This document shows positions 13,312 to 26,722 of a stretch of DNA of 52,407 bases, one piece after another (position 1 is the stretch's first letter; each line of letters starts with the position of its first letter). The notes under the pieces were generated by a model. It had not been told where the DNA came from. It did not search any database and saw nothing but the letters and a program-made list of their open reading frames with translations. Position numbers and translations under genes: made by a program. The DNA is from a virus, in the UHGV virus genome UHGV-0113213; one strand, written 5' to 3'.

Positions 13312-14011
13312 CAAAACGCCCGGATCTACCGGGCTTTTCTTGCTCACGATTTTTCATTCTTTCTAGTGCCTTTTTAGCGGCCTCCATTTGCTCGTCATAA
13401 GCACGTTTATTTATGTGAATGTTTGGCTTGCTTTTCTCGTTTCTTTCGTCTGGCGGCGTTTTAGCGCGTACAGCGGCCCTATATCCGGTCATTGTCATAT
13501 TCCATGCTTCCGATTCTGACAAGCCCAGGTGAGCAACGGCAGAATAGACGAATTCAAGGACGTTAAAAGTCGGCTTATATTCCCCTTCCGGGATTTCCCC
13601 GGACTCTTCTTCCGGGCCATCACCAATAAGACCGTGGTACATGCAGTGCTGCGCAAGCGTGATGATATCCTCGATCGGCATTAATCCGGGCTTTAACTTT
13701 AACTTACCCGAAGGAGTAAACCAGCATTCGCCCAATAACGGGCCTATTTCGTCGTCTGAGCAACATTTCAGGATGTGCATTGATGTCTGAACTATTTCAC
13801 CATAACACCGCGCCAGAATGCGATTGCGTAGGTCTGGATCTGCTGGCAATCGTGATGGATATTTGCCGCCGTGGATAAGTGCGAAATATTCGACAAGCTC
13901 ACTATCGTTGCCGATTTTAGCCATCGCAGCAAAGCAAGGATTAAACTCATAGCGCTTACCGTTCACCACGGCAGCAAATTGTCCTGTACGAACATGGATC
14001 ATAGTATTCAC
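13304..14011 (-). CDS. tail assembly chaperone (G/GT-equivalent position)
   Basis: 235 aa, located between the tail tube and tape measure genes. Acidic middle, basic C-terminus. A single continuous ORF; I could not find a convincing slippery site. Confidence 0.5.
   Translation of the reverse strand: MNTMIHVRTGQFAAVVNGKRYEFNPCFAAMAKIGNDSELVEYFALIHGGKYPSRLPADPDLRNRILARCYGEIVQTSMHILKCCSDDEIGPLLGECWFTPSGKLKLKPGLMPIEDIITLAQHCMYHGLIGDGPEEESGEIPEGEYKPTFNVLEFVYSAVAHLGLSESEAWNMTMTGYRAAVRAKTPPDERNEKSKPNIHINKRAYDEQMEAAKKALERMKNREQEKPGRSGRFAN
13315..13342 (+). terminator. rho-independent terminator of the lipoprotein cassette
   Basis: GCCCGG(13318-13323) ATCTA CCGGGC(13329-13334) followed by TTTTCTTG. 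Embedded in the 3' end of the convergent minus-strand ORF. Confidence 0.7.
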
Positions 14012-14013
14012 CT

Positions 14014-14040
14014 TAAAAGAAAAGGGGCCAAATGGCCCCG
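14014..14040 (-). terminator. rho-independent terminator after the major tail gene
   Basis: GGGGCC(14024-14029) AAAT GGCCCC(14034-14039), followed on the minus strand by TTTTCTTTT. Confidence 0.75.
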
Positions 14041-14057
14041 ATTGTTAATATTGGCTG

Positions 14058-14534
14058 TTATGCTGGCGGAACGTCGCCTACCGTTACCTTGCCAGCGCTT
14101 TCGCACTCAATAGACCAGGTGGAAACATCATCATGCGGATCTTCTTCTTTAAAGGAAGTGCAAAGGAATGGGCCTTCAGTTACGTCTACAGGAGAAACGA
14201 TCTTCAGCCATACATAAGGTTGTGATCCGGTGGTTTCACCTGGCGTAATTACGTGGCGTTTCAGCGCTTTCTGATTATGGATTTCTTCAGTGCGGGACAC
14301 ACCGTCGCCGGAGAAAGAAACGGATTTGTAAGTAACCATTGATTCTTTCGTGTAATCGGCTGATTTATCGGCGGTGGCGTCAGCGGTTTCCCATTCAACG
14401 GAAAGTGTTTTACCACGCATCATGCCTAACGCTTTGTACGCTTCAGCTTCCGGCTTCGCATTTGGACAAGCGATAGCGAAGAATACAGCAACGTCACGGC
14501 CTGTAAACGTGCCTTTTTCGCAAGTCTGAGACAT
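14058..14534 (-). CDS. major tail (tube) protein
   Basis: 158 aa. Position, size and a strong downstream terminator. Resembles TP901-1/phi13-type tail tube proteins (recalled, not searched). Confidence 0.7.
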   Translation of the reverse strand: MSQTCEKGTFTGRDVAVFFAIACPNAKPEAEAYKALGMMRGKTLSVEWETADATADKSADYTKESMVTYKSVSFSGDGVSRTEEIHNQKALKRHVITPGETTGSQPYVWLKIVSPVDVTEGPFLCTSFKEEDPHDDVSTWSIECESAGKVTVGDVPPA

Positions 14535-17858: not shown

Positions 17859-19145
17859 TTATGCGAAATAGTTGTTAATGTCAGGGGTGGCAGGTTTATT
17901 TCCACCAGCGGCTGAGTTTGCTGCCATTGGTGCTGCTTTACCCAGGGATTTAAACATTGCGTCTAACGCTTCACCACTTAATGCGTTAGCAACAATTTCG
18001 CCGTGTACTTTTGCTACTGCGGCGCGTTTTTCTGCTTCTTCTTTATTTGCGTTTGCTGCGATCTCTTCTTTAATCGCTTTCTGATTGGTCTGTAATTCTT
18101 CAACGCTTGCCTGTACTGGTTTTAATGCCTCTGCTACTGCATTAGCGATATTGGCGGATAAGCCTTCGTTAATTTCTTTTACCAGTTCGGCGCGTTCTTC
18201 TTTGGTCAAAGGCATGGGATCGTCCTCCGATTTATTGGCCTTAATTTTTTCATTCAGGGAGAAAAGATTAGAAAGGTGTTCAGCGAACTGCGTAAACCAG
18301 GATTTACTTTCCTCGTTGGTTGCAAGCTCGCCATTATTGAGAATAATTTTATCAGCCTGTTTTTCATATGCGCAAACTTGAGCACTTTCTGTATTAGTGG
18401 CGATCGTCACTTCTTTATCAGTGAAGTCCACCACATACACGTAATCGGCATCAGGAAATAATTCACGCGCCGCGTCGGTTAATTGTTTCTCAAGCGTACG
18501 GTAACTGTTTTCTTTCATTGCCACCGCCATTAACGGTTTCGCCTGGTCAGTATTAACCATCAACCCTACACCCTGTTCAGGTGATGCGGCTGGCGGCTCA
18601 TGCAGCAAAATAGCGTCATGGTCGATCGACATAATTTTTACTACATGGTCAGCGCCCTGGGCTTTCATCTCTTCAGTAGCTGGCATACGCTGACGATATA
18701 CAGCGACGGACGACCAGATAGGATCTTTGCTTTCTCCTTTCTCCAGTGCTTCCAGTCGGGTTAATAATTCACGCCCCTGTTCTGAATGGCTGGCTGTTTC
18801 AATATCCACCCATTTTTCCACATAAACACGATTGCCGCGTAATTCAACGTTTCTGTTCCACGCTCCACAAAACCCGGTGTTCAATCCTTCCGGGCTAAAT
18901 GCGGAAACAAATTTACCGTCAACGGTAGGATGACCCAGCGGGGCGAGTGTCCCCTCCAGTGACTGGTAATTAGCGATAATTTCAGCTTCCGGGTAATATT
19001 CACGATTCATAACGATATTGAATGGCAGCGTATATGATGGCACAACAATGTGCTCGCGTCCGTTATAAGTTTCCCGGCGTATGGTATTAGCGGTTAATTT
19101 GGTATTAACCTGAATCAGTTCTTTACTCACGGTTTTTACTCCCAA
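17859..19145 (-). CDS. capsid scaffolding (possibly protease-scaffold) protein
   Basis: 428 aa. Globular N-terminal half, then an Ala/Glu/Lys-rich helical C-terminal half (EERAELVKEINEGLSANIANAVAEALKPVQASVEELQ...). Confidence 0.6.
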   Translation of the reverse strand: MGVKTVSKELIQVNTKLTANTIRRETYNGREHIVVPSYTLPFNIVMNREYYPEAEIIANYQSLEGTLAPLGHPTVDGKFVSAFSPEGLNTGFCGAWNRNVELRGNRVYVEKWVDIETASHSEQGRELLTRLEALEKGESKDPIWSSVAVYRQRMPATEEMKAQGADHVVKIMSIDHDAILLHEPPAASPEQGVGLMVNTDQAKPLMAVAMKENSYRTLEKQLTDAARELFPDADYVYVVDFTDKEVTIATNTESAQVCAYEKQADKIILNNGELATNEESKSWFTQFAEHLSNLFSLNEKIKANKSEDDPMPLTKEERAELVKEINEGLSANIANAVAEALKPVQASVEELQTNQKAIKEEIAANANKEEAEKRAAVAKVHGEIVANALSGEALDAMFKSLGKAAPMAANSAAGGNKPATPDINNYFA

Positions 19146-20077
19146 TCTTCGCCATATTTAGCGTGCGCAACTTTATAGTTTTCTTGCGCCCGATCTAATA
19201 TTCGTTCGTTTAATATGTTACCGTCTTCGTCAACTAATACGGTAATCGTGCTACATTTGCAGTTAATTGAATTAGGGGATCTACTCCACCATTCGCGCTG
19301 CTCATCTATGGTGTATGTTTTACCGTGCCGCTGCGCGTGCGATAGCCTGGTAGTCGGTGATAATGCCGAAATGTGCATTTGCATAGTGCGCAGATTAAAT
19401 TCTTCTGTCGCCGCTTCTGCCTCATCCATACGCGCTGTGCGTAACGCTGTGCATATTTCAGTTCGAGCAATACGTTTACACCTGTATAGCGGTAATTGCG
19501 TCTCCTGATTCAATGTGCGCGCTATTTCCAGTGGGTTTAAACCACGGGCCATGCCTTCAGTTAATCGCCGGGCCATATCCTTTTTGATCTGTGCGGTCAG
19601 CCCGCGCATTTCCTCAAATACACGGGTACGGACCAGAGCAAGGCGTGTTCGGTAAGTTGTACTGGATAACACGGCAGATACATCGGGATAAACGCTTGAG
19701 TACGTGACAGACTGGTTAGCAAGGTTGGCGTATTCCTGTGCCGTGCCTCGCAGATACGCGACCTTCACGTATTCCTGCCAGAACCAAAAACTTTCCGGGT
19801 CGGTTAGCTCGAATATCTCATCAATCATGTCGCTGGCGTCCTCCAGCATGTCGTGCAATTCATCCATGTAAATCTGGAAGGTATATTTCTTATTAACAGC
19901 CAGGCTATATTGTATTTTGTCCAGTATGGCGATATATGGATCGGCTACTTTTTTCAGGCAGGATTTGAAACGCTTAATAGCGCCAGACCTCAACCTCCCT
20001 GTCATGGTCGGGTCTTCGGTGTTAGATGGCATTATCGCGGCTGGAGGTATTCGCCTGATTATTTTCTTCACCTTCAT
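19136..20077 (-). CDS. head morphogenesis protein (Mu F / SPP1 gp7 family)
   Basis: 313 aa. RIARTEICTALRTARMDEA-type motif. Directly after the portal gene. The start may be an internal Met at 20032 or 20005, because the ORF overlaps the portal end. Confidence 0.75.
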   Translation of the reverse strand: MKVKKIIRRIPPAAIMPSNTEDPTMTGRLRSGAIKRFKSCLKKVADPYIAILDKIQYSLAVNKKYTFQIYMDELHDMLEDASDMIDEIFELTDPESFWFWQEYVKVAYLRGTAQEYANLANQSVTYSSVYPDVSAVLSSTTYRTRLALVRTRVFEEMRGLTAQIKKDMARRLTEGMARGLNPLEIARTLNQETQLPLYRCKRIARTEICTALRTARMDEAEAATEEFNLRTMQMHISALSPTTRLSHAQRHGKTYTIDEQREWWSRSPNSINCKCSTITVLVDEDGNILNERILDRAQENYKVAHAKYGEDWE

Positions 20078-21473: not shown

Positions 21474-22988
21474 TTAAAATCCGCGCAGGCGCTTAGGTAA
21501 CATAAGGCCCATTGCCTGTGGCTGGCTTAATTCAGTGATACCCCACACCATAGCGTCGAGGCGGTCAGGTGATTTTTTAGCGGTAGCTGGCACGTATTCC
21601 ATCATTTGATTTTCCAGCGTGTACAGGCTGCCTGTGTGGGCCACCCTTCCTTGTGCATACAGTGCCGATATTGGCTCGGCGCGGGCGAATTTACCCTTGC
21701 TTGCGTGCACCTTAACAATGCGGCCTTTGAATCCGGCGTTACGTAGCGTGGCCTCTGCCATATCACCACCCTGGTTGGTTTCGATAACCATCGCGTCAGC
21801 TTCATGGATGTTGTAGGCGTTCATTGCTGCTTGCGCCCAGTCATTAGGTGACATGCGTCCTGAGTAGTCACCGTCTACTGAATACTGAGCATTCTTGCCA
21901 CCACCATAAGCGGAACAGGCTACAATCCCTGTTTCGTCTGACTCATCAGATGATGTTGTCGCCGGGTCGATGGCTATCACCGTGCGAATTTTCTCCTGCG
22001 TTATCTGCATCCTGTGCGCGGCGGTTATCATCGCTTCAGTCCACAATGCGCCCTCTTGATCGAACTTGCGCGGACACTGCATATATTGAGCTTCGAATGT
22101 TCGGCGATGTGATTTAAGAGTTGATTCATCTTTATCACTATGCTTATGCAACCATAGCCAGCCATCCGGCAGGTTGTGAGGAACAGGAATAGCAAATTTG
22201 TTTTCCGGGTACAGATCCCAATAGTCAAGACTGTTGTCGATCTTCACTGGCAGGCAAAGGTGATGCCATTTCTCACCACTACCGCCACGTAACAGGTAGC
22301 CGGATAAATCATCGTAGTGGATACGCTGCATGATGACGATCACTGGCGTTGTTTGCACAGCCAGGCGCGAAGAAAGCGTGTCGTTGTAATTGGTATTAAC
22401 CTGCTTTCGCACCACATCAGAATAAGCGTCAGCTGGTTTCAGGGGGTCATCAATAATCATTGCGCCGTTAAACCCAGGTTCCATGTACCCGGCGCGGAAC
22501 CCTGTCACCTGTCCAAGCGATGACGTCGCATACACGCCGCCACCCTGAGTGGTCCACCACAGGTTTTTCGCGTTCGAATCGTTGCGCATTTGCATAGGCC
22601 ACAATTCCTGATATTGCGGCATCGTGATTATGTTTCTTGTCTCTGAGGAATTAAGCAAGGCGAGTCCGTGTGAATACGATACATGCAGGAATCTGGTGCG
22701 GGGTTCTATTGCGAGGCAGCGGGCCATCATGTGAATTGTGGCAATCATTGTTTTGCCATAGCCCGGTGGGATGTTGATTATCAACCTGGTGATTTCACCA
22801 TTAATAACTCGTTGTAGCGTATCGGCAATTATTCTGTGATGACGCCCAACCAAAAAGTCCTTGCCAACCTGTTGCTTATAAAAGTAGGAACTAAAAAACA
22901 AAGGTGCTGATATGTCTTTGGGGGCACAACCTTTAACACACAACCCCCTTAGAACCTCTCTGTCAATCTTTGTCGTCGCAGTCTCCAT
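21474..22988 (-). CDS. terL: terminase large subunit
   Basis: 504 aa. Walker A-like IPPGYGKT, a DD(P) Walker B region and a C-terminal nuclease-like half. Confidence 0.9.
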   Translation of the reverse strand: METATTKIDREVLRGLCVKGCAPKDISAPLFFSSYFYKQQVGKDFLVGRHHRIIADTLQRVINGEITRLIINIPPGYGKTMIATIHMMARCLAIEPRTRFLHVSYSHGLALLNSSETRNIITMPQYQELWPMQMRNDSNAKNLWWTTQGGGVYATSSLGQVTGFRAGYMEPGFNGAMIIDDPLKPADAYSDVVRKQVNTNYNDTLSSRLAVQTTPVIVIMQRIHYDDLSGYLLRGGSGEKWHHLCLPVKIDNSLDYWDLYPENKFAIPVPHNLPDGWLWLHKHSDKDESTLKSHRRTFEAQYMQCPRKFDQEGALWTEAMITAAHRMQITQEKIRTVIAIDPATTSSDESDETGIVACSAYGGGKNAQYSVDGDYSGRMSPNDWAQAAMNAYNIHEADAMVIETNQGGDMAEATLRNAGFKGRIVKVHASKGKFARAEPISALYAQGRVAHTGSLYTLENQMMEYVPATAKKSPDRLDAMVWGITELSQPQAMGLMLPKRLRGF

Positions 22989-23478
22989 GAGTATTGTACT
23001 CCTTATTCAGGTTATCGATTATCTCAAGGACAGTAGTCTGATTTACTTCTACCTGGACGGGCGCTTCTTCCCTGTTACCTACGATCTCCTGCGTGACGCG
23101 CTCACCATATTTACGCGGTTGCAGTTTTGCCAGTAACCATTTACGAGTTTCAATCATCAGTTGATGGCGGCGGCATTGGTCTTTATCGGTGTTCTCCGCT
23201 GCGTCTGCTATGTCGATAATCTCATCAGCCAATATCTCAAAACCGATCTCCTTCGCGCGCATGTACATGTCCGAGAACTCCGGCACGTCTCTGAACCATT
23301 TAAGGATTGTTGAACGCGCAGGCATATCAGGCATCTTCGAAATTTTGTTAATACTCTGACCGTCCGCCACCAGCTCACAGATTTCTAATGCCTTTTCTTC
23401 GGTATAACCATGCGGACGGCCCGTCTTTTTGGCTGCTGGCTTTTTATCGTCAGCATTTGCCTTTTTAGTGCGGGCCAT
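22963..23478 (-). CDS. terS: terminase small subunit
   Basis: 171 aa. Basic N-terminus, HTH (SINKISKMPDMPARSTILKWF), RKWLLAKL..RKYGE motif. Overlaps the TerL start. Confidence 0.8.
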   Translation of the reverse strand: MARTKKANADDKKPAAKKTGRPHGYTEEKALEICELVADGQSINKISKMPDMPARSTILKWFRDVPEFSDMYMRAKEIGFEILADEIIDIADAAENTDKDQCRRHQLMIETRKWLLAKLQPRKYGERVTQEIVGNREEAPVQVEVNQTTVLEIIDNLNKEYNTHGDCDDKD

Positions 23479-23488
23479 AATTCACCTC

Positions 23489-23632
23489 TTAATCATCTTT
23501 ACCAAATCTTAATTTAAATTCATTCATCATCTTTTCTACTTCCTGTTCGGAAAGATAGATGGTTTCATTATTTTCTGCTGAATCAAGTGCCTTTCTTATT
23601 TCATCTGCTATTTTTAGTTCTTCATCGTTCAT
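23489..23632 (-). CDS. hypothetical acidic small protein
   Basis: 47 aa from the ATG at 23632 (GAGGTG SD): MNDEELKIADEIRKALDSAENNETIYLSEQEVEKMMNEFKLRFGKDD. Confidence 0.55.
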   Translation of the reverse strand: MNDEELKIADEIRKALDSAENNETIYLSEQEVEKMMNEFKLRFGKDD

Positions 23633-23643
23633 ATCGTCACCTC

Positions 23644-23727
23644 TTAATATTTGTTGATGATATATACGCAAGCCACAAAACTTGCGCAATATGTTAATAC
23701 TTCCAACCAGTCGAATAGCTCTTTCAT
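23644..23727 (-). CDS. hydrophobic micropeptide, array member 11 of 11 (27 aa)
   Basis: MKELFDWLEVLTYCASFVACVYIINKY. ATGA overlap with member 10. Confidence 0.55.
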   Translation of the reverse strand: MKELFDWLEVLTYCASFVACVYIINKY

Positions 23728-23867
23728 TGTTGCCCCTTGAATATATGCTTCGCTTCTCTGTAAATTAGCGCACCAGTCATTACAATCGCGTATACGCATA
23801 ACATTAACGCGACGATAAGCACGCCAGAACAAAGCAAAAACATCAGTAGATCGATAAATTCAAACAT
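23724..23867 (-). CDS. hydrophobic micropeptide, array member 10 (47 aa)
   Basis: MFEFIDLLMFLLCSGVLIVALMLCVYAIVMTGALIYREAKHIFKGQQ. GGTGAG lies 8 nt upstream. Confidence 0.6.
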   Translation of the reverse strand: MFEFIDLLMFLLCSGVLIVALMLCVYAIVMTGALIYREAKHIFKGQQ

Positions 23868-23875
23868 AATATTTC

Positions 23876-23944
23876 TCACCAGGAGAAAACAATAACAACC
23901 AACAGTGCGCTTATAGCTATAATTAAGAAATCACTATCAGACAT
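23876..23944 (-). CDS. hydrophobic micropeptide, array member 9 (22 aa)
   Basis: MSDSDFLIIAISALLVVIVFSW. The start lies inside the end of member 8. Confidence 0.5.
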   Translation of the reverse strand: MSDSDFLIIAISALLVVIVFSW

Positions 23945-24011
23945 TGATAATTACCAAGATAATAAATAACGCAACTGTACACACGATCAACATAATATCA
24001 ATAGCGTTCAT
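23937..24011 (-). CDS. hydrophobic micropeptide, array member 8 (24 aa)
   Basis: MNAIDIMLIVCTVALFIILVIINV. GGTGAG SD. Confidence 0.55.
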   Translation of the reverse strand: MNAIDIMLIVCTVALFIILVIINV

Positions 24012-24019
24012 TCGCTCAC

Positions 24020-24088
24020 CTACTGAGTCAGTGCTGTCATGGTAAGAACAATCGCGACAATCAGGAAAAAGAAATCAAGCCATTTCAT
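24020..24088 (-). CDS. hydrophobic micropeptide, array member 7 (22 aa)
   Basis: MKWLDFFFLIVAIVLTMTALTQ. AGGAG SD 6 nt upstream. Confidence 0.6.
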   Translation of the reverse strand: MKWLDFFFLIVAIVLTMTALTQ

Positions 24089-24103
24089 TTTAACTCCTGA
24101 GAT

Positions 24104-24175
24104 TCAGTTAACACTTAAAAGCACCGCAACGATGACAATCACTATAATCATGCAAAAGAAGTCTGCTTCTCTCAT
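24104..24175 (-). CDS. hydrophobic micropeptide, array member 6 (23 aa)
   Basis: MREADFFCMIIVIVIVAVLLSVN. ATGA overlap with member 5. Confidence 0.55.
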   Translation of the reverse strand: MREADFFCMIIVIVIVAVLLSVN

Positions 24176-24252
24176 CTTTTTAGCCCTCGATAAAAATCAA
24201 CAGCAATGACTACAACTACAGCCACCAGCAATAGCATTTCGTATGCGTTCAT
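24172..24252 (-). CDS. hydrophobic micropeptide, array member 5 (26 aa)
   Basis: MNAYEMLLLVAVVVVIAVDFYRGLKR. ATGA overlap with member 4. Confidence 0.55.
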   Translation of the reverse strand: MNAYEMLLLVAVVVVIAVDFYRGLKR

Positions 24253-24347
24253 TTGATGCTACCCATAACAAGGCCGATGATAATAATTATGGCGACAATG
24301 CCTAACATCATTCCGAACATAATCGCCATCAGTTCGAATATATCCAT
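24249..24347 (-). CDS. hydrophobic micropeptide, array member 4 (32 aa)
   Basis: MDIFELMAIMFGMMLGIVAIIIIIGLVMGSIK. 3-nt gap after member 3. Confidence 0.55.
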   Translation of the reverse strand: MDIFELMAIMFGMMLGIVAIIIIIGLVMGSIK

Positions 24348-24350
24348 GCT

Positions 24351-24425
24351 TCAGCTTTCAATGAATATCATGATCGCCAGCCATACGGCGACGCATAAGG
24401 AAAGGATGATTAGCGGGTCAATCAT
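24351..24425 (-). CDS. hydrophobic micropeptide, array member 3 (24 aa)
   Basis: MIDPLIILSLCVAVWLAIMIFIES. GGTGGGGTGA SD. Confidence 0.55.
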   Translation of the reverse strand: MIDPLIILSLCVAVWLAIMIFIES

Positions 24426-24429
24426 ATTT

Positions 24430-24540
24430 TCACCCCACCAAATACTTGATATATACGTTTATCAGCGCAACTATAATAGAACCAGCAAGAAACACAGAAA
24501 CGCCGATTAATACGGCAATGATGTAAGCGGCCATAATCAT
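24430..24540 (-). CDS. hydrophobic micropeptide, array member 2 (36 aa)
   Basis: MIMAAYIIAVLIGVSVFLAGSIIVALINVYIKYLVG. TAATG overlap with member 1. Confidence 0.55.
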   Translation of the reverse strand: MIMAAYIIAVLIGVSVFLAGSIIVALINVYIKYLVG

Positions 24541-24602
24541 TACTTCCACAACAAAAACAATATTACAGCCGCCGCCATTCCGATAAATAAATAAGCGTCC
24601 AT
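24540..24602 (-). CDS. hydrophobic micropeptide, array member 1 (20 aa)
   Basis: MDAYLFIGMAAAVILFLLWK. The ATG lies 2 nt after the stop of the HExxH gene. Confidence 0.5.
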   Translation of the reverse strand: MDAYLFIGMAAAVILFLLWK

Positions 24603-24604
24603 AA

Positions 24605-25189
24605 TCAGCCTCGTTTAAAGCTCATTACACGCGGTACAAGCGCCTCTTTTGCTTTAGGCTTACGTTTGCCTTTCTTGGCTGGTTTTTTCTCTTCTTTCGG
24701 CTCCTCTGCCTGCTCTACTGCCTGTTCTGCTGCATCAGTCGCCTTTTCCGCCTGCTCCAATGCCTGCTCAACGACTTCAGCGGCCTGCATAGCTGCCAAC
24801 TGTGCTTCGTTAGATTCAGCCAGGATCGGGAAGAATGCATCAAAGATGCGGCCCACCATGTAAGCATATGTCTCGTTTGCCGGATGGCTTGGTTCTGTAG
24901 TCGCTACGACACCGACATCACTTAAAACGTGGAATGTAGTGTGAGCCGCTTCATGTACCAGCGTACCAAGCTCATTATCGAATACTGCGATCACGTAGAA
25001 GTTACCGCCTTTCTCGCCAGTGCAAGTAAGTGTTAAACCTCCTGCCAGTTCAAAATCAGGTTCGATTGGGATCCCTGCCTTTTCGCAAAATTCATAGAAC
25101 ATGTCACGAGTCGGGCAGAAGAAAACTGTTGTATGCTCGAAGAGCGGGACTTTGAATTGAGGCAACTTAATGCCTTTACCCTTAGCCAT
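24605..25189 (-). CDS. HExxH-motif protein (putative zinc metallopeptidase) with an acidic coiled and Lys-rich tail
   Basis: 194 aa. GTLVHEAAHTTFHV contains HEAAH plus a downstream His. The C-terminus runs AEQAVEQAEEPKEEKKPAKKGKRKPKAKE. Confidence 0.5.
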   Translation of the reverse strand: MAKGKGIKLPQFKVPLFEHTTVFFCPTRDMFYEFCEKAGIPIEPDFELAGGLTLTCTGEKGGNFYVIAVFDNELGTLVHEAAHTTFHVLSDVGVVATTEPSHPANETYAYMVGRIFDAFFPILAESNEAQLAAMQAAEVVEQALEQAEKATDAAEQAVEQAEEPKEEKKPAKKGKRKPKAKEALVPRVMSFKRG

Positions 25190-25526
25190 CAGAATATTCC
25201 TCTATCCTGAAAAATATAACCCCCGCAAAACTGGACACCGCAGGGAGTGAAAACAGATATAAAACACTGAAAACGGCGCTTAGTGAGTACCGTTTGCAGA
25301 ATTTTATAAAACTGGACCTGCTTAACATCTCTGATAAACAGATCCGGGCGCTCGTCCTACGCGTGGCAGGTGAGTAAATGGCGCTTTCTTCTACCCAGGT
25401 AGCGCCGTACCTGTTAATGAGGTTGTTTACCCGGTATTACGTGTTTTTGAATTTCCGCCGTCGCTCGCGGGAAGGATTGACCCGGTTATGGCTGGCTGGC
25501 AGAAACGGCGACACGTCCACGAGCTG

Positions 25527-26015
25527 TTATTCTTTACGCAAGCACTGCGTTTTGATGTAGTCCTGTAGGCCAGTGATCTGTGCGTCTTTTATTTTTAGTT
25601 GTTCTCTGAGGGATAGATAAGCCGATTTAGCGTCGGCAGTAGGTTCGCAGGTGGCTCCATCAATGCGGCTGGAGGTTCCGGTATTACTGTCTGTTCGCAT
25701 TGGCACGGCGTTGACGCGCAACCGGATAGTACCGTTATCAATGCCAGTGCGCAGATCGGCAATGTCAGATCTGATAGCTTTAATCTCATCGTGATACCTC
25801 TTATCAAGTTTTGACAGTTCGGCGTTTCGCTCCTTCATCTGCTGAATAGTGTTACTTGCTGTCTTCAGTGCGCCTTTCGTCACCGTGACTTCTTCCTGTA
25901 ACCTTGTCGCCTCACCCTGGTAATAACACGTTACGGCGGTTAGTCCGGCAATAATGCAAACAACAGCGGCGATAATTAACGCCTTCACCTTGTCCACGTT
26001 TCCCCCCATTCGCAA
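25527..26015 (-). CDS. Rz: i-spanin (Rz-like)
   Basis: 162 aa. N-terminal TM ([17 protein letters not shown]), coiled-coil periplasmic domain. Overlaps the endolysin end. Confidence 0.8.
25595..25789 (-). CDS. Rz1: o-spanin (Rz1-like), embedded in the Rz frame
   Basis: 64 aa from the internal Met: [23 protein letters not shown]|C lipobox, Pro-rich mature part. Fully nested in a different frame of the i-spanin gene. Confidence 0.75.
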   Translation of the reverse strand: MRLKLSDLTLPICALALITVLSGCASTPCQCEQTVIPEPPAALMEPPANLLPTLNRLIYPSENN

Positions 26016-26476
26016 ACGGCATATTCAACATCTCGGCGGTTTACCAGGCCTTGCCACTTCTTACCACCAGCGTATACCCAGCGTTTAAGCTGTGCGCACG
26101 CCTCTGATTTCTTACCGTCATTGAGTAGCTTTAATAAGGTTGATGTTTTGAAGTTGGTTGCGCCTACGTTATAGGCGAATGAATAAAGCGCAGCGCGGGT
26201 AAAATCTGATATTTCGACTTTGATATATGGGTTAATCGCTTTTGCGGTTTTGTGGAGATCTTTGTTTAACAAAGTATCGCATTCTGATTGCGTGTAAGTC
26301 TTACCAAGCATGATGTCTTTTCCGGTGTGACCATAGCAAACAGTCCATACACCGATAACATCACGATAAGGATCGTACTCCACGCCCTCTAATGGTTTAA
26401 CCATCACAGCCGCAATAGCGATCGCCCCACCAGCCGCCGCAGCAATAATTTTATTCTTCAGCGATTGGCTAATCAT
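25985..26476 (-). CDS. R: SAR endolysin (T4-lysozyme-fold muramidase)
   Basis: 163 aa from the ATG at 26476, which follows the holin stop. Weakly hydrophobic Gly/Ala-rich N-terminus [17 protein letters not shown]. Catalytic E-x8-D-x5-T ([16 protein letters not shown]). Confidence 0.85.
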
Positions 26477-26477
26477 G

Positions 26478-26678
26478 TTACTTATTCCCCATTCGCGCGT
26501 CGTGTTCCTCTTGCGCTCGCTTGTTCTCCTGTGATTTGAAGTAATAGTTAACGGCAAATGTGCCTATGGTTGATAAGATACCCACAAAGACAGCAATATC
26601 ATTAATGGTTATCGCGCCGAAAAAAGCAGTTACGGCCCCGGTCACATACGCGCACGCCTCCCGTATTCTGTCGAACAT
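26478..26678 (-). CDS. S: holin (two-TM, pinholin-like)
   Basis: 66 aa, two hydrophobic helices, charged C-terminus ([15 protein letters not shown]). Directly precedes the SAR endolysin. Confidence 0.75.
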
Positions 26679-26694
26679 AGATTTTCCTCCAACA

Positions 26695-26722
26695 AAGCAA
26701 AAACCCGGCTCGTGGCCGGGTA
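26695..26722 (-). terminator. rho-independent terminator immediately upstream of the lysis cassette (tR'-like)
   Basis: CCCGGCC ACGA GCCGGG on the minus strand, followed by TTTTTGCTTTGTT, then GGAGG and the holin ATG. Confidence 0.65.

Follow-up and report, generated by a model that had tools for sequence, protein, structure and literature searches.

Designs comparable with that of the gene treated here are those of the SprT, Spartan and Wss1 proteases (SprT-like, PF10263, and WLM) and of the metallopeptidase (MPTase) domains of polyvalent proteins and ArdC (PF18818). In the SprT/WLM enzymes, as the structures of Spartan and Wss1 illustrate, the third zinc ligand is a His located a few residues past the HExxH motif. 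The zincin-like metallopeptidase core is made up of a three-stranded sheet, an N-terminal helix, the HExxH helix and a Glu helix (PMC5512222). We have analysed a gene with a comparable layout at positions 24605-25189, on the minus strand, of UHGV virus genome UHGV-0113213; "the window" below means this whole stretch of 52,407 nucleotides (nt), which derives from an mEp021-like (mEpimmI group) temperate siphophage of Escherichia coli. An original prediction, made from the letters of the window, had described here an HExxH protein with an acidic coiled region and a poly-lysine tail, lying next to an array of micropeptide genes. Conservation among its relatives and a structure model both indicate that this protein of 194 amino acids (aa) is very probably a metallopeptidase. 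The gene, an ATG-to-TGA open reading frame (ORF), and its parts are the following.

24605-25189, minus strand: the whole gene, 194 aa plus stop, taken from the ORF list; ortholog of mEp021 gp49
24809-25189, minus strand: minimal zincin-like domain, residues 1-127, predicted from the PHROG 1365 match, the profile search and AlphaFold
24941-24955, minus strand: codons of the HExxH motif (H79-E80-A-A-H83), invariant in the alignments of 98 and 113 sequences, on predicted helix 74-91
24860-24877, minus strand: codons N105-E106-T-Y-A-Y110, with E106 invariant and Y110 at least 90% conserved, at the start of the predicted helix from residue 103 onward
24695-24808, minus strand: acidic Ala/Glu/Gln heptad helix, residues 128-165, net charge ca. 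-9, recognized from the model, the heptads, a repeat and indels
24608-24694, minus strand: polybasic tail, predicted to be disordered, residues 166-194 (EEKKPAKKGKRKPKAKEALVPRVMSFKRG), net charge +9 to +10

A predicted minimal gluzincin domain

The span given in the original prediction was exact, and the strings it quoted are all present in the translation (LVHEAAHTTFH at residues 77-87, AEQAVEQAEE at 154-163 and KKPAKKGKRKPKAK at 168-181). This is a real gene, under strong purifying selection on all three of its parts. Over the whole gene, comparison with mEp021 gave a synonymous divergence (dS) of 0.52 and a nonsynonymous divergence (dN) of 0.030, that is, a ratio (omega) of 0.058, and the comparison with phage MagusPhagus an omega of 0.037. 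Taken separately, the domain, the helix and the tail had omega values of 0.04, 0.10 and 0.09 against mEp021, and over all comparisons the ranges were 0.03-0.04, 0.06-0.10 and 0.04-0.12, respectively. The orthologs in the mEp phages are 95-97% identical to the 194 aa protein, and gp49 of mEp021 is annotated only as a "hypothetical protein". Among 5426 complete E. coli genomes, 34 carry the gene, in each case as a single chromosomal copy annotated as hypothetical.

Taken alone, the HExxH motif is weak evidence and barely meaningful (it arises by chance in 1.2% of shuffles of the protein, and 2 of the 204 window ORFs of at least 60 aa contain one). Its weight comes from conservation across diverged relatives. 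Searching 1.84 billion cluster representatives with a profile built on residues 1-127, at a cut-off of E<1e-3, recovered 221 of them, nearly all 110-135 aa long; a second homology search, with the family alignment, mostly returned the same E. coli cluster. When 98 sequences were aligned, at a mean column identity of 18%, only G51, H79, E80, H83 and E106 were invariant, and exactly the same set emerged from an alignment of 113 sequences (ca. 19%). P15 and Y110 in the first, and over the two also T76 and G93, were conserved at 90% or more. E106 lies 22 residues past H83 and Y110 falls just short of invariance, so that the signature of the family can be written HExxH-x22-(N)ExxxY. As a sequence pattern, this is the one of the gluzincins, in which two His ligands and a catalytic Glu are followed by a Glu ligand on the next element. 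H79 and H83 would then be two zinc ligands, E80 the catalytic base and E106 the third ligand, and Y110, one helical turn past E106, could have a role in stabilizing the transition state.

The original prediction had taken LVHEAAHTTFH as the only metal-site-like signature of the protein. The HExxH part of that string held up, but not its last His: H87, like H102, is conserved only among the close E. coli homologs and not in the wider family, and a three-His site of the type HExxHxxxH was rejected for this reason. The third element of the putative site, E106 within HPANETYAY, had been overlooked.

The AlphaFold2 model of the domain, built from the 98-sequence alignment, is a confident one, with a predicted local distance difference test score (pLDDT) of 93.8 and a predicted template modelling score (pTM) of 0.87. 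Strands are predicted at residues 11-13, 21-25, 51-57 and 63-69, and helices at 28-38, 44-48, 74-91 and from 103 onward. The HExxH motif sits on helix 74-91 (pLDDT ca. 97), behind the beta-sheet, while E106 and Y110 are carried at the start of the following helix. The order of the elements, i.e., sheet, backing helix, HExxH helix and Glu helix, matches the definition of the zincin-like core (PMC5512222), strands 21-25, 51-57 and 63-69 (with 11-13 in addition) corresponding to its three-stranded sheet and helix 28-38 to its N-terminal helix. The predicted structure thus places the motif in a metalloprotease-like helix and fold, and the suggestion that the protein could be a peptidase has gained considerably in strength.

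Database searches gave a consistent picture of a family that has gone undescribed. The only family match was to PHROG 1365, of unknown function (E=1.6e-29, residues 3-130 against profile positions 5-123 of 127). A phmmer search against the sequences of the Protein Data Bank (PDB) gave no matches, and a profile of the 98 relatives reached only E>=0.05 there, against zinc endopeptidases (myroilysin, astacin, M35) aligned on the strand and the HExxH motif. With Foldseek, 30 predicted viral structures in BFVD matched at E<1e-3, all of them small phage proteins and mostly unnamed, although a few have been auto-labelled SprT-like or Metalloprotease. Along similar lines, 12 of the 98 relatives have SprT-like Pfam matches below threshold (E>=1e-4), the window protein has no SprT-like match at E<=10 in Pfam, and a Pfam scan of ten of the most divergent family members gave no SprT-like match either. 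One close homolog (P0118) is auto-labelled "PolyVal Metallopeptidase superfamily domain" in nr. On the strength of alignments and models, we file the protein as a zincin superfamily (clan MA) member of a distinct, undescribed family that appears to be neither SprT-like, nor MPTase-PolyVal, nor ImmA/IrrE. What is new is the family, which is without a Pfam or NCBIfam entry, a structure or a literature; the fold class is already known. We found no functional study of the PHROG 1365 family in literature searches covering mEp021, hkcC, SprT-like anti-defense, polyvalent proteins and accessory-gene screens.

The domain is found in very different settings, as revealed by a tblastn search against 50,697 phage records. 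Besides the mEp-like phages, it occurs in P22-like phages (in two slots), in Ralstonia T7-like phages, and in an N4-like Pseudomonas phage and Enterobacter phage phiEap-2. In the P22-like phages ST64T, L and epsilon34 it corresponds to Orf-129 (gp70 in epsilon34), located between Rz (gene 15) and the small terminase and flanked by Orf-118 (DUF2560) and Orf-134, while HkcC of HK620 and a copy in P22 are in the immI region. The P22 homolog (BK000583.1, ca. 13849-14226; locus L004, 2465-2842, plus strand) is intact (121-125 aa, with HECAH...NETYCY) and unannotated, and lies between sieA and orf59a on the late-transcribed strand, corresponding to hkcC of HK620. In the Ralstonia T7-like phages the domain follows endolysin and Rz at the right genome end, and in phiEap-2 it is found in the replication module, between an endonuclease and a Lar-like restriction-alleviation gene. 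The pattern, as read from these sequences, is that of phage-specific accessory genes in variable slots and, as no neighbour is constant across the settings, it suggests an accessory gene that acts on its own.

The acidic helix, the basic tail and a proposed mechanism

In the model of the full-length protein (pLDDT 90.3) the Glu helix continues unbroken from residue 103 to 162, with pLDDT values of 96-98, and residues 163-194 are unstructured. The acidic coil followed by a poly-lysine tail that had been noticed at the outset is borne out in this model, in the form of a single helix of ca. 60 residues and a disordered tail with a charge of +10. Residues 128-165 can be arranged in heptads (EAQLAAM / QAAEVVE / QALEQAE / KATDAAE / QAVEQAE) in which one position is always Ala and another is taken by small residues; the underlying DNA has a weak 21-nt tandem repeat, and indels of 14 aa between strains give rise to forms of 180, 190 and 194 aa. 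The Alanine_zipper family of Pfam matches this helix below threshold (E=0.016), as do similar low-complexity families. The heptads, the repeat, the length indels and the Alanine_zipper match all point to a stalk, and this acidic helix may serve as such or as a coiled-coil oligomerisation element.

The tail has no predicted secondary structure (pLDDT 64-68). It is rich in Lys, Pro and Ala, reminiscent of the tails of histone H1, and has a conserved terminus (EALVPRVMSFKRG); K172, K175, R176, K177, K179, K181, E182, P186 and V188 are invariant in the close homologs. A more distant ortholog, only 57% identical in the domain (P0121), has the same plan of stalk and tail. Several separate lineages (P0121, P0161, P0176, P0200 and P0244) carry a basic or charged appendage at the C-terminus, the unrelated ones in the form of charged helices or short basic tails of their own, and P0132 has a Cys-rich CPVCSC stretch. 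A query with 45 aa of the tail returned a single fragment and also failed to recover the known homologs, which makes it uninformative on reuse of the tail elsewhere.

We propose that the N-terminal 125 residues form a minimal gluzincin-type zinc metallopeptidase, a cytoplasmic and late-expressed accessory protein, and in this much of the proposal we have good confidence. The zinc would be bound by H79 and H83, which share a helix, together with E106 of the helix that follows. E80 would activate a water molecule, and substrates would bind as extended chains along the edge of the beta-sheet preceding the HExxH helix. The mEp021-like lineage would have prolonged the Glu helix into the acidic stalk, ending in the disordered H1-like tail, and the tail would tether the protease to a polyanion, most likely a nucleic acid. 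The tethered enzyme might then find its substrates among proteins located on or close to DNA or RNA, by analogy with SprT, Spartan and Wss1 and with the ArdC and polyvalent-protein metallopeptidases. Given the distribution typical of an accessory gene, its target would more likely be a host or competitor protein than a structural component of the phage or an essential part of the virion. Metal binding, catalysis, the partner of the tail and the substrate are all things that we infer, and the explanation taken as a whole, tether included, is the best one we have, although we would put it at about an even chance.

A more specific version, built on the same analogy, would make the protein a viral counterpart of the DNA-protein-crosslink proteases: a zincin on an acidic stalk, held by its H1-like tail to phage DNA in replication or in concatemers. 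Its role, late in infection and just before packaging, would be to remove or destroy host proteins bound to DNA (restriction or defence nucleases, nucleoid proteins, for instance), and the relatives without a tail, found in P22-like, T7-like and N4-like phages, would be similarly employed against other targets. We consider this version improbable. If true, it would mean that there is a widespread and unrecognised class of protease-based genes for counter-defence or host takeover, one of them unannotated in P22.

Late operon, micropeptides and competing readings

The elements in the immediate vicinity of the gene are the following.

25210-25245, minus strand: terminator-like hairpin with a U-rich tract, from RNA folding (8-bp GC-rich stem), between Rz and the zincin gene
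25199-25202, minus strand: Shine-Dalgarno sequence (SD) of the zincin gene, GAGG, 9 nt before the ATG, read from the sequence
24600-24612, minus strand: junction GAGGCTGATTATG, with an SD in the last zincin codons, then the stop TGA, 2 nt and the first micropeptide's ATG
23724-24602, minus strand: micropeptide array, ca. 10 ORFs of 20-47 aa with a single transmembrane (TM) segment each, in mEp-like phages only

Megablast of the region 23400-26100 matched only mEp010, mEp013, mEp021, mEp044, mEp515, mEp554 and MagusPhagus. Along the minus strand, a Q-like antiterminator and small ORFs are followed by holin (PF16080), lysozyme (PF00959), Rz (PF03245) with Rz1, a spacer of 340 nt, the zincin gene, the tiny hydrophobic ORFs, an acidic ORF of 47 aa, the Sf6-type small terminase, the large terminase, the portal, a MuF-like protein and the head genes. 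The zincin gene is therefore part of the late operon, in which it comes after Q, holin, lysozyme and Rz. The hairpin lies within this operon, ca. 25 nt upstream of the ribosome-binding site of the gene, and the equivalent site of mEp021 is annotated as a terminator (TERM_6). No sigma-70-like promoter was found upstream of the gene on the same strand, and an Rfam search of 23300-26700 gave zero matches. Without Q-dependent read-through of the hairpin, neither the zincin nor the micropeptides nor the terminase would be expressed.

Several neighbours deserve a mention in their own right. The 47 aa ORF between the array and the small terminase (23489-23632, minus strand; MNDEELKIADEIRKALDSAENNETIYLSEQEVEKMMNEFKLRFGKDD) is highly acidic and has a strong SD, and its only PHROG match is a marginal one, to PHROG 7284 (E=0.009). 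The Sf6-type small terminase (22963-23478, minus strand) has at its N-terminus a Lys/Pro/Ala-rich stretch (KKANADDKKPAAKKTGRP) that resembles the basic tail of the zincin. Three related loci (L008, L009 and L010) have an HNH_3 gene between lysozyme and Rz that is absent from the window. A related metagenomic phage (L008, 9491-10534) has a MuF-like minor head protein of 635 aa with an intein (PF14890), while that of the window (19136-20077) has 313 aa and none.

The array was said in the original prediction to begin 2 nt past the stop of the gene, and so it does: the stop TGA (24607-24605) is followed by TT and by the ATG (24602-24600) of a hydrophobic ORF of 20 aa. The junction reads AAA CGA GGC TGA TT ATG, with the SD of the first micropeptide, GAGG, inside the last zincin codons. 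It is conserved in mEp021, MagusPhagus and metagenomic loci, and persists downstream of an HNH gene where one has been inserted. To judge from this arrangement, the zincin gene and the first micropeptide gene are almost certainly co-transcribed, and the co-translation that had been thought probable is plausible as translational coupling, given TGA-TT-ATG and the SD in the last codons.

The ORFs of the array are in tandem and often overlap, and each encodes one TM helix and has an acidic residue close to the N-terminus; most have an SD of their own. Related loci have the array as well (L001, 3084-3565; L002, 2170-3160; L008, 5535-6095; L009, 6000-6580). Individual micropeptides are conserved across mEp-like phages (e.g., MIDPLIILSxCVAVWLAIMIFIES and MKWLDFFFLIVAIVLTMTALTQ), with 5 to 11 members per array. 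None of them matches a PHROG family, and we found no repeats at the DNA level within the array. There are also two read-through variants of the zincin, of 211 aa (P0007) and 209 aa (P0008), that continue into the micropeptide region. The residues added in the second (VI followed by MFTFLLGVFIGAAGTAIVMFSPKWPVG) match the first micropeptide of MagusPhagus, which fits a 1-nt insertion before the stop. Both variants are singleton clusters and could be sequencing errors.

Several observations weigh against the tethered protease that we favour. Pfam and NCBIfam scans of the protein gave no family match, none of the PADLOC-DB models matched at E<=10 (a Lit-like or other defence protease was rejected on this account), and aligning the family profile with E. 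coli SprT (YggI) by hhalign gave a probability of only 5.7%; membership of the SprT/WLM or ImmA/IrrE families, which profile searches were to check, was not recovered at curated thresholds. Most members of the family are tail-less, with a median C-terminal extension of 7 aa, from which it follows that tethering is not intrinsic to the function of the family. In addition, P0113-type prophages (108 member sequences; loci L009 and L010, 5001-6000) have an HNH_3 endonuclease gene of 145 aa inserted in the 3' end of the zincin gene, where it replaces the last ca. 20 residues and leaves the "...FKRG* TT ATG" junction stranded just downstream. Either the extreme C-terminus is dispensable or these prophages are decaying. 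The conservation of the final KRG codons may also reflect, in part, the overlapping SD of the next gene. Finally, nucleic acid as the partner of the tail is a choice made from composition alone; we think it somewhat short of an even chance, with a membrane as an unlikely partner and a specific protein as a further alternative.

The membrane is at the centre of the alternative that survives best. Here the protein would be a membrane-proximal protease, whose tail docks on the anionic inner leaflet and which either processes the micropeptides or is regulated by them, as had been originally suggested, or which tunes lysis or superinfection exclusion together with them. Polybasic tails with a few hydrophobic residues, such as the VPRVMSF found here, can bind acidic lipids. 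The gene adjoins the array in every mEp-like locus examined, with the conserved TGA-TT-ATG junction and SD, the rare read-through forms (P0008, P0007) fuse the protein to a TM peptide, and the genes that immediately precede it are those of holin, lysozyme and Rz, not only here but also in P22-like and Ralstonia T7-like phages. However, the array is restricted to the mEp021-like lineage, being absent beside the family members of P22-like, T7-like, N4-like and Jersey-like phages (among them Orf-129, HkcC, RSB3 ORF49, phCDa gp24 and the phiEap-2 homolog). Its size varies from 5 to 11 beside a constant protease gene, and in some prophages an HNH gene parts the two. The fusions, as mentioned, may be artefacts, and the peptides themselves are almost wholly transmembrane, with 2-6 exposed residues, which leaves little for a cytoplasmic protease to cut. 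We therefore consider a functional link with the micropeptides improbable; the best explanation for their genes is that they are downstream cistrons of the same late transcript and not substrates of the zincin.

Slightly less probable still is that we are dealing with a packaging or capsid protein, another of the possibilities initially raised, whose basic tail would bind phage DNA or the interior of the procapsid, the protein being packaged or acting with the terminase on concatemers. The genes of the Sf6-type small terminase, the large terminase and the portal follow ca. 1.1 kb downstream of the zincin gene, its tail is H1-like, with a similar KKPAAKK stretch at the N-terminus of the small terminase, and metallopeptidases of polyvalent proteins are packaged or injected in other phages (PMC5512222). 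Nothing positive came out in favour of association with the capsid, though. Mass spectrometry of the mEp021 virion identified 16 proteins and gp49 is not annotated among them; only two of the virion proteins are encoded outside the main cluster, both of them upstream of the lysis genes. Moreover, members of the family are found in replication, early and immunity regions of other phages, and the slot between Rz and the small terminase is the classic accessory position of P22-like phages, where Orf-118 (DUF2560) and Orf-134 accompany the homolog.

It could also be argued that the fold has been kept for binding only, e.g., in an adaptor or inhibitor that sequesters a host factor, and that the HExxH motif is merely left over. 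The family has no member with a known activity, and the domain is very small and devoid of accessory substrate-binding domains. Nevertheless, at a mean column identity of ca. 19% the positions that remain invariant are the putative catalytic and metal residues, which is what selection for catalysis would produce and selection for a surface used in binding would not, and we regard an inert protein as very improbable. The least probable of all, an ImmA/IrrE-like anti-repressor that would cleave the prophage repressor or another transcription factor, was rejected for its wrong context (Rz/Rz1 and micropeptide ORFs of a late operon as neighbours, with no adjacent Xre/CI-type regulator), for the lack of a Peptidase_M78 (PF06114) match in Pfam or NCBIfam, and for the presence of the family in strictly lytic T7-like and N4-like phages.

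Significance and comparison with known systems

For the time being, this is an uncharacterised accessory gene with a confident assignment to a fold class, and not a new mechanism. If active, the protein would be among the smallest protease scaffolds known, possibly useful as a compact scaffold for protein engineering, and the first to be characterised in a phage-only family that counts at least 221 sequence clusters. To our knowledge, proteases are rare among the known anti-host factors of phages, and for that reason a minimal zincin on a tether would usefully extend their repertoire for counter-defence or host takeover. The family reaches model phages, including P22, with its intact but unannotated copy, HK620, ST64T, epsilon34 and L. 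The genetics available for P22 and HK620 make a direct test of the question possible.

Among cellular proteins, the minigluzincins (proabylysin and projannalysin) and the Acel_2062 zincin (PDB 3e11) invite comparison by their size and type. There is no sequence match to them in the PDB and the structural score was within noise; they are archaeal or bacterial, and have neither stalk nor tail. Like the protein predicted here, the MPTase domains found in polyvalent proteins and in ArdC (PF18818; Iyer et al., 2017, PMC5512222) are zincins of mobile elements in which a three-stranded sheet precedes the HExxH helix and a Glu is found on the next helix. In contrast, the window protein is a single globular domain, with no PF18818 match and without ArdC-N or any other effector domain, and it is not known to enter the virion or to be injected.

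With SprT, Spartan and Wss1 the resemblance is one of logic. These also combine a small HExxH zincin domain with an appendage that binds nucleic acid (in our case a binding that we would only expect from the nature of the tail), and a protease tethered to DNA is what we have proposed here. They differ in the details of the site, the invariant third residue of the window family being Glu106 and not His, and the window protein has no zinc ribbon or zinc-binding domain (ZBD).

The nearest relatives are in other phages. Orf-129 of ST64T, Orf129 of L, gp70 of epsilon34, HkcC of HK620 and the P22 ORF are bare domains of 121-129 aa, without the acidic helix, the basic tail or an adjacent micropeptide array, which makes the architecture with stalk and tail a lineage-specific variant. 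Yet all of them are homologous to the N-terminal domain (37-46% identity, tblastn E values from 1e-12 to 1e-24) and share its HExxH...NETYxY signature, and Orf-129 even occupies the same slot between Rz and the small terminase.

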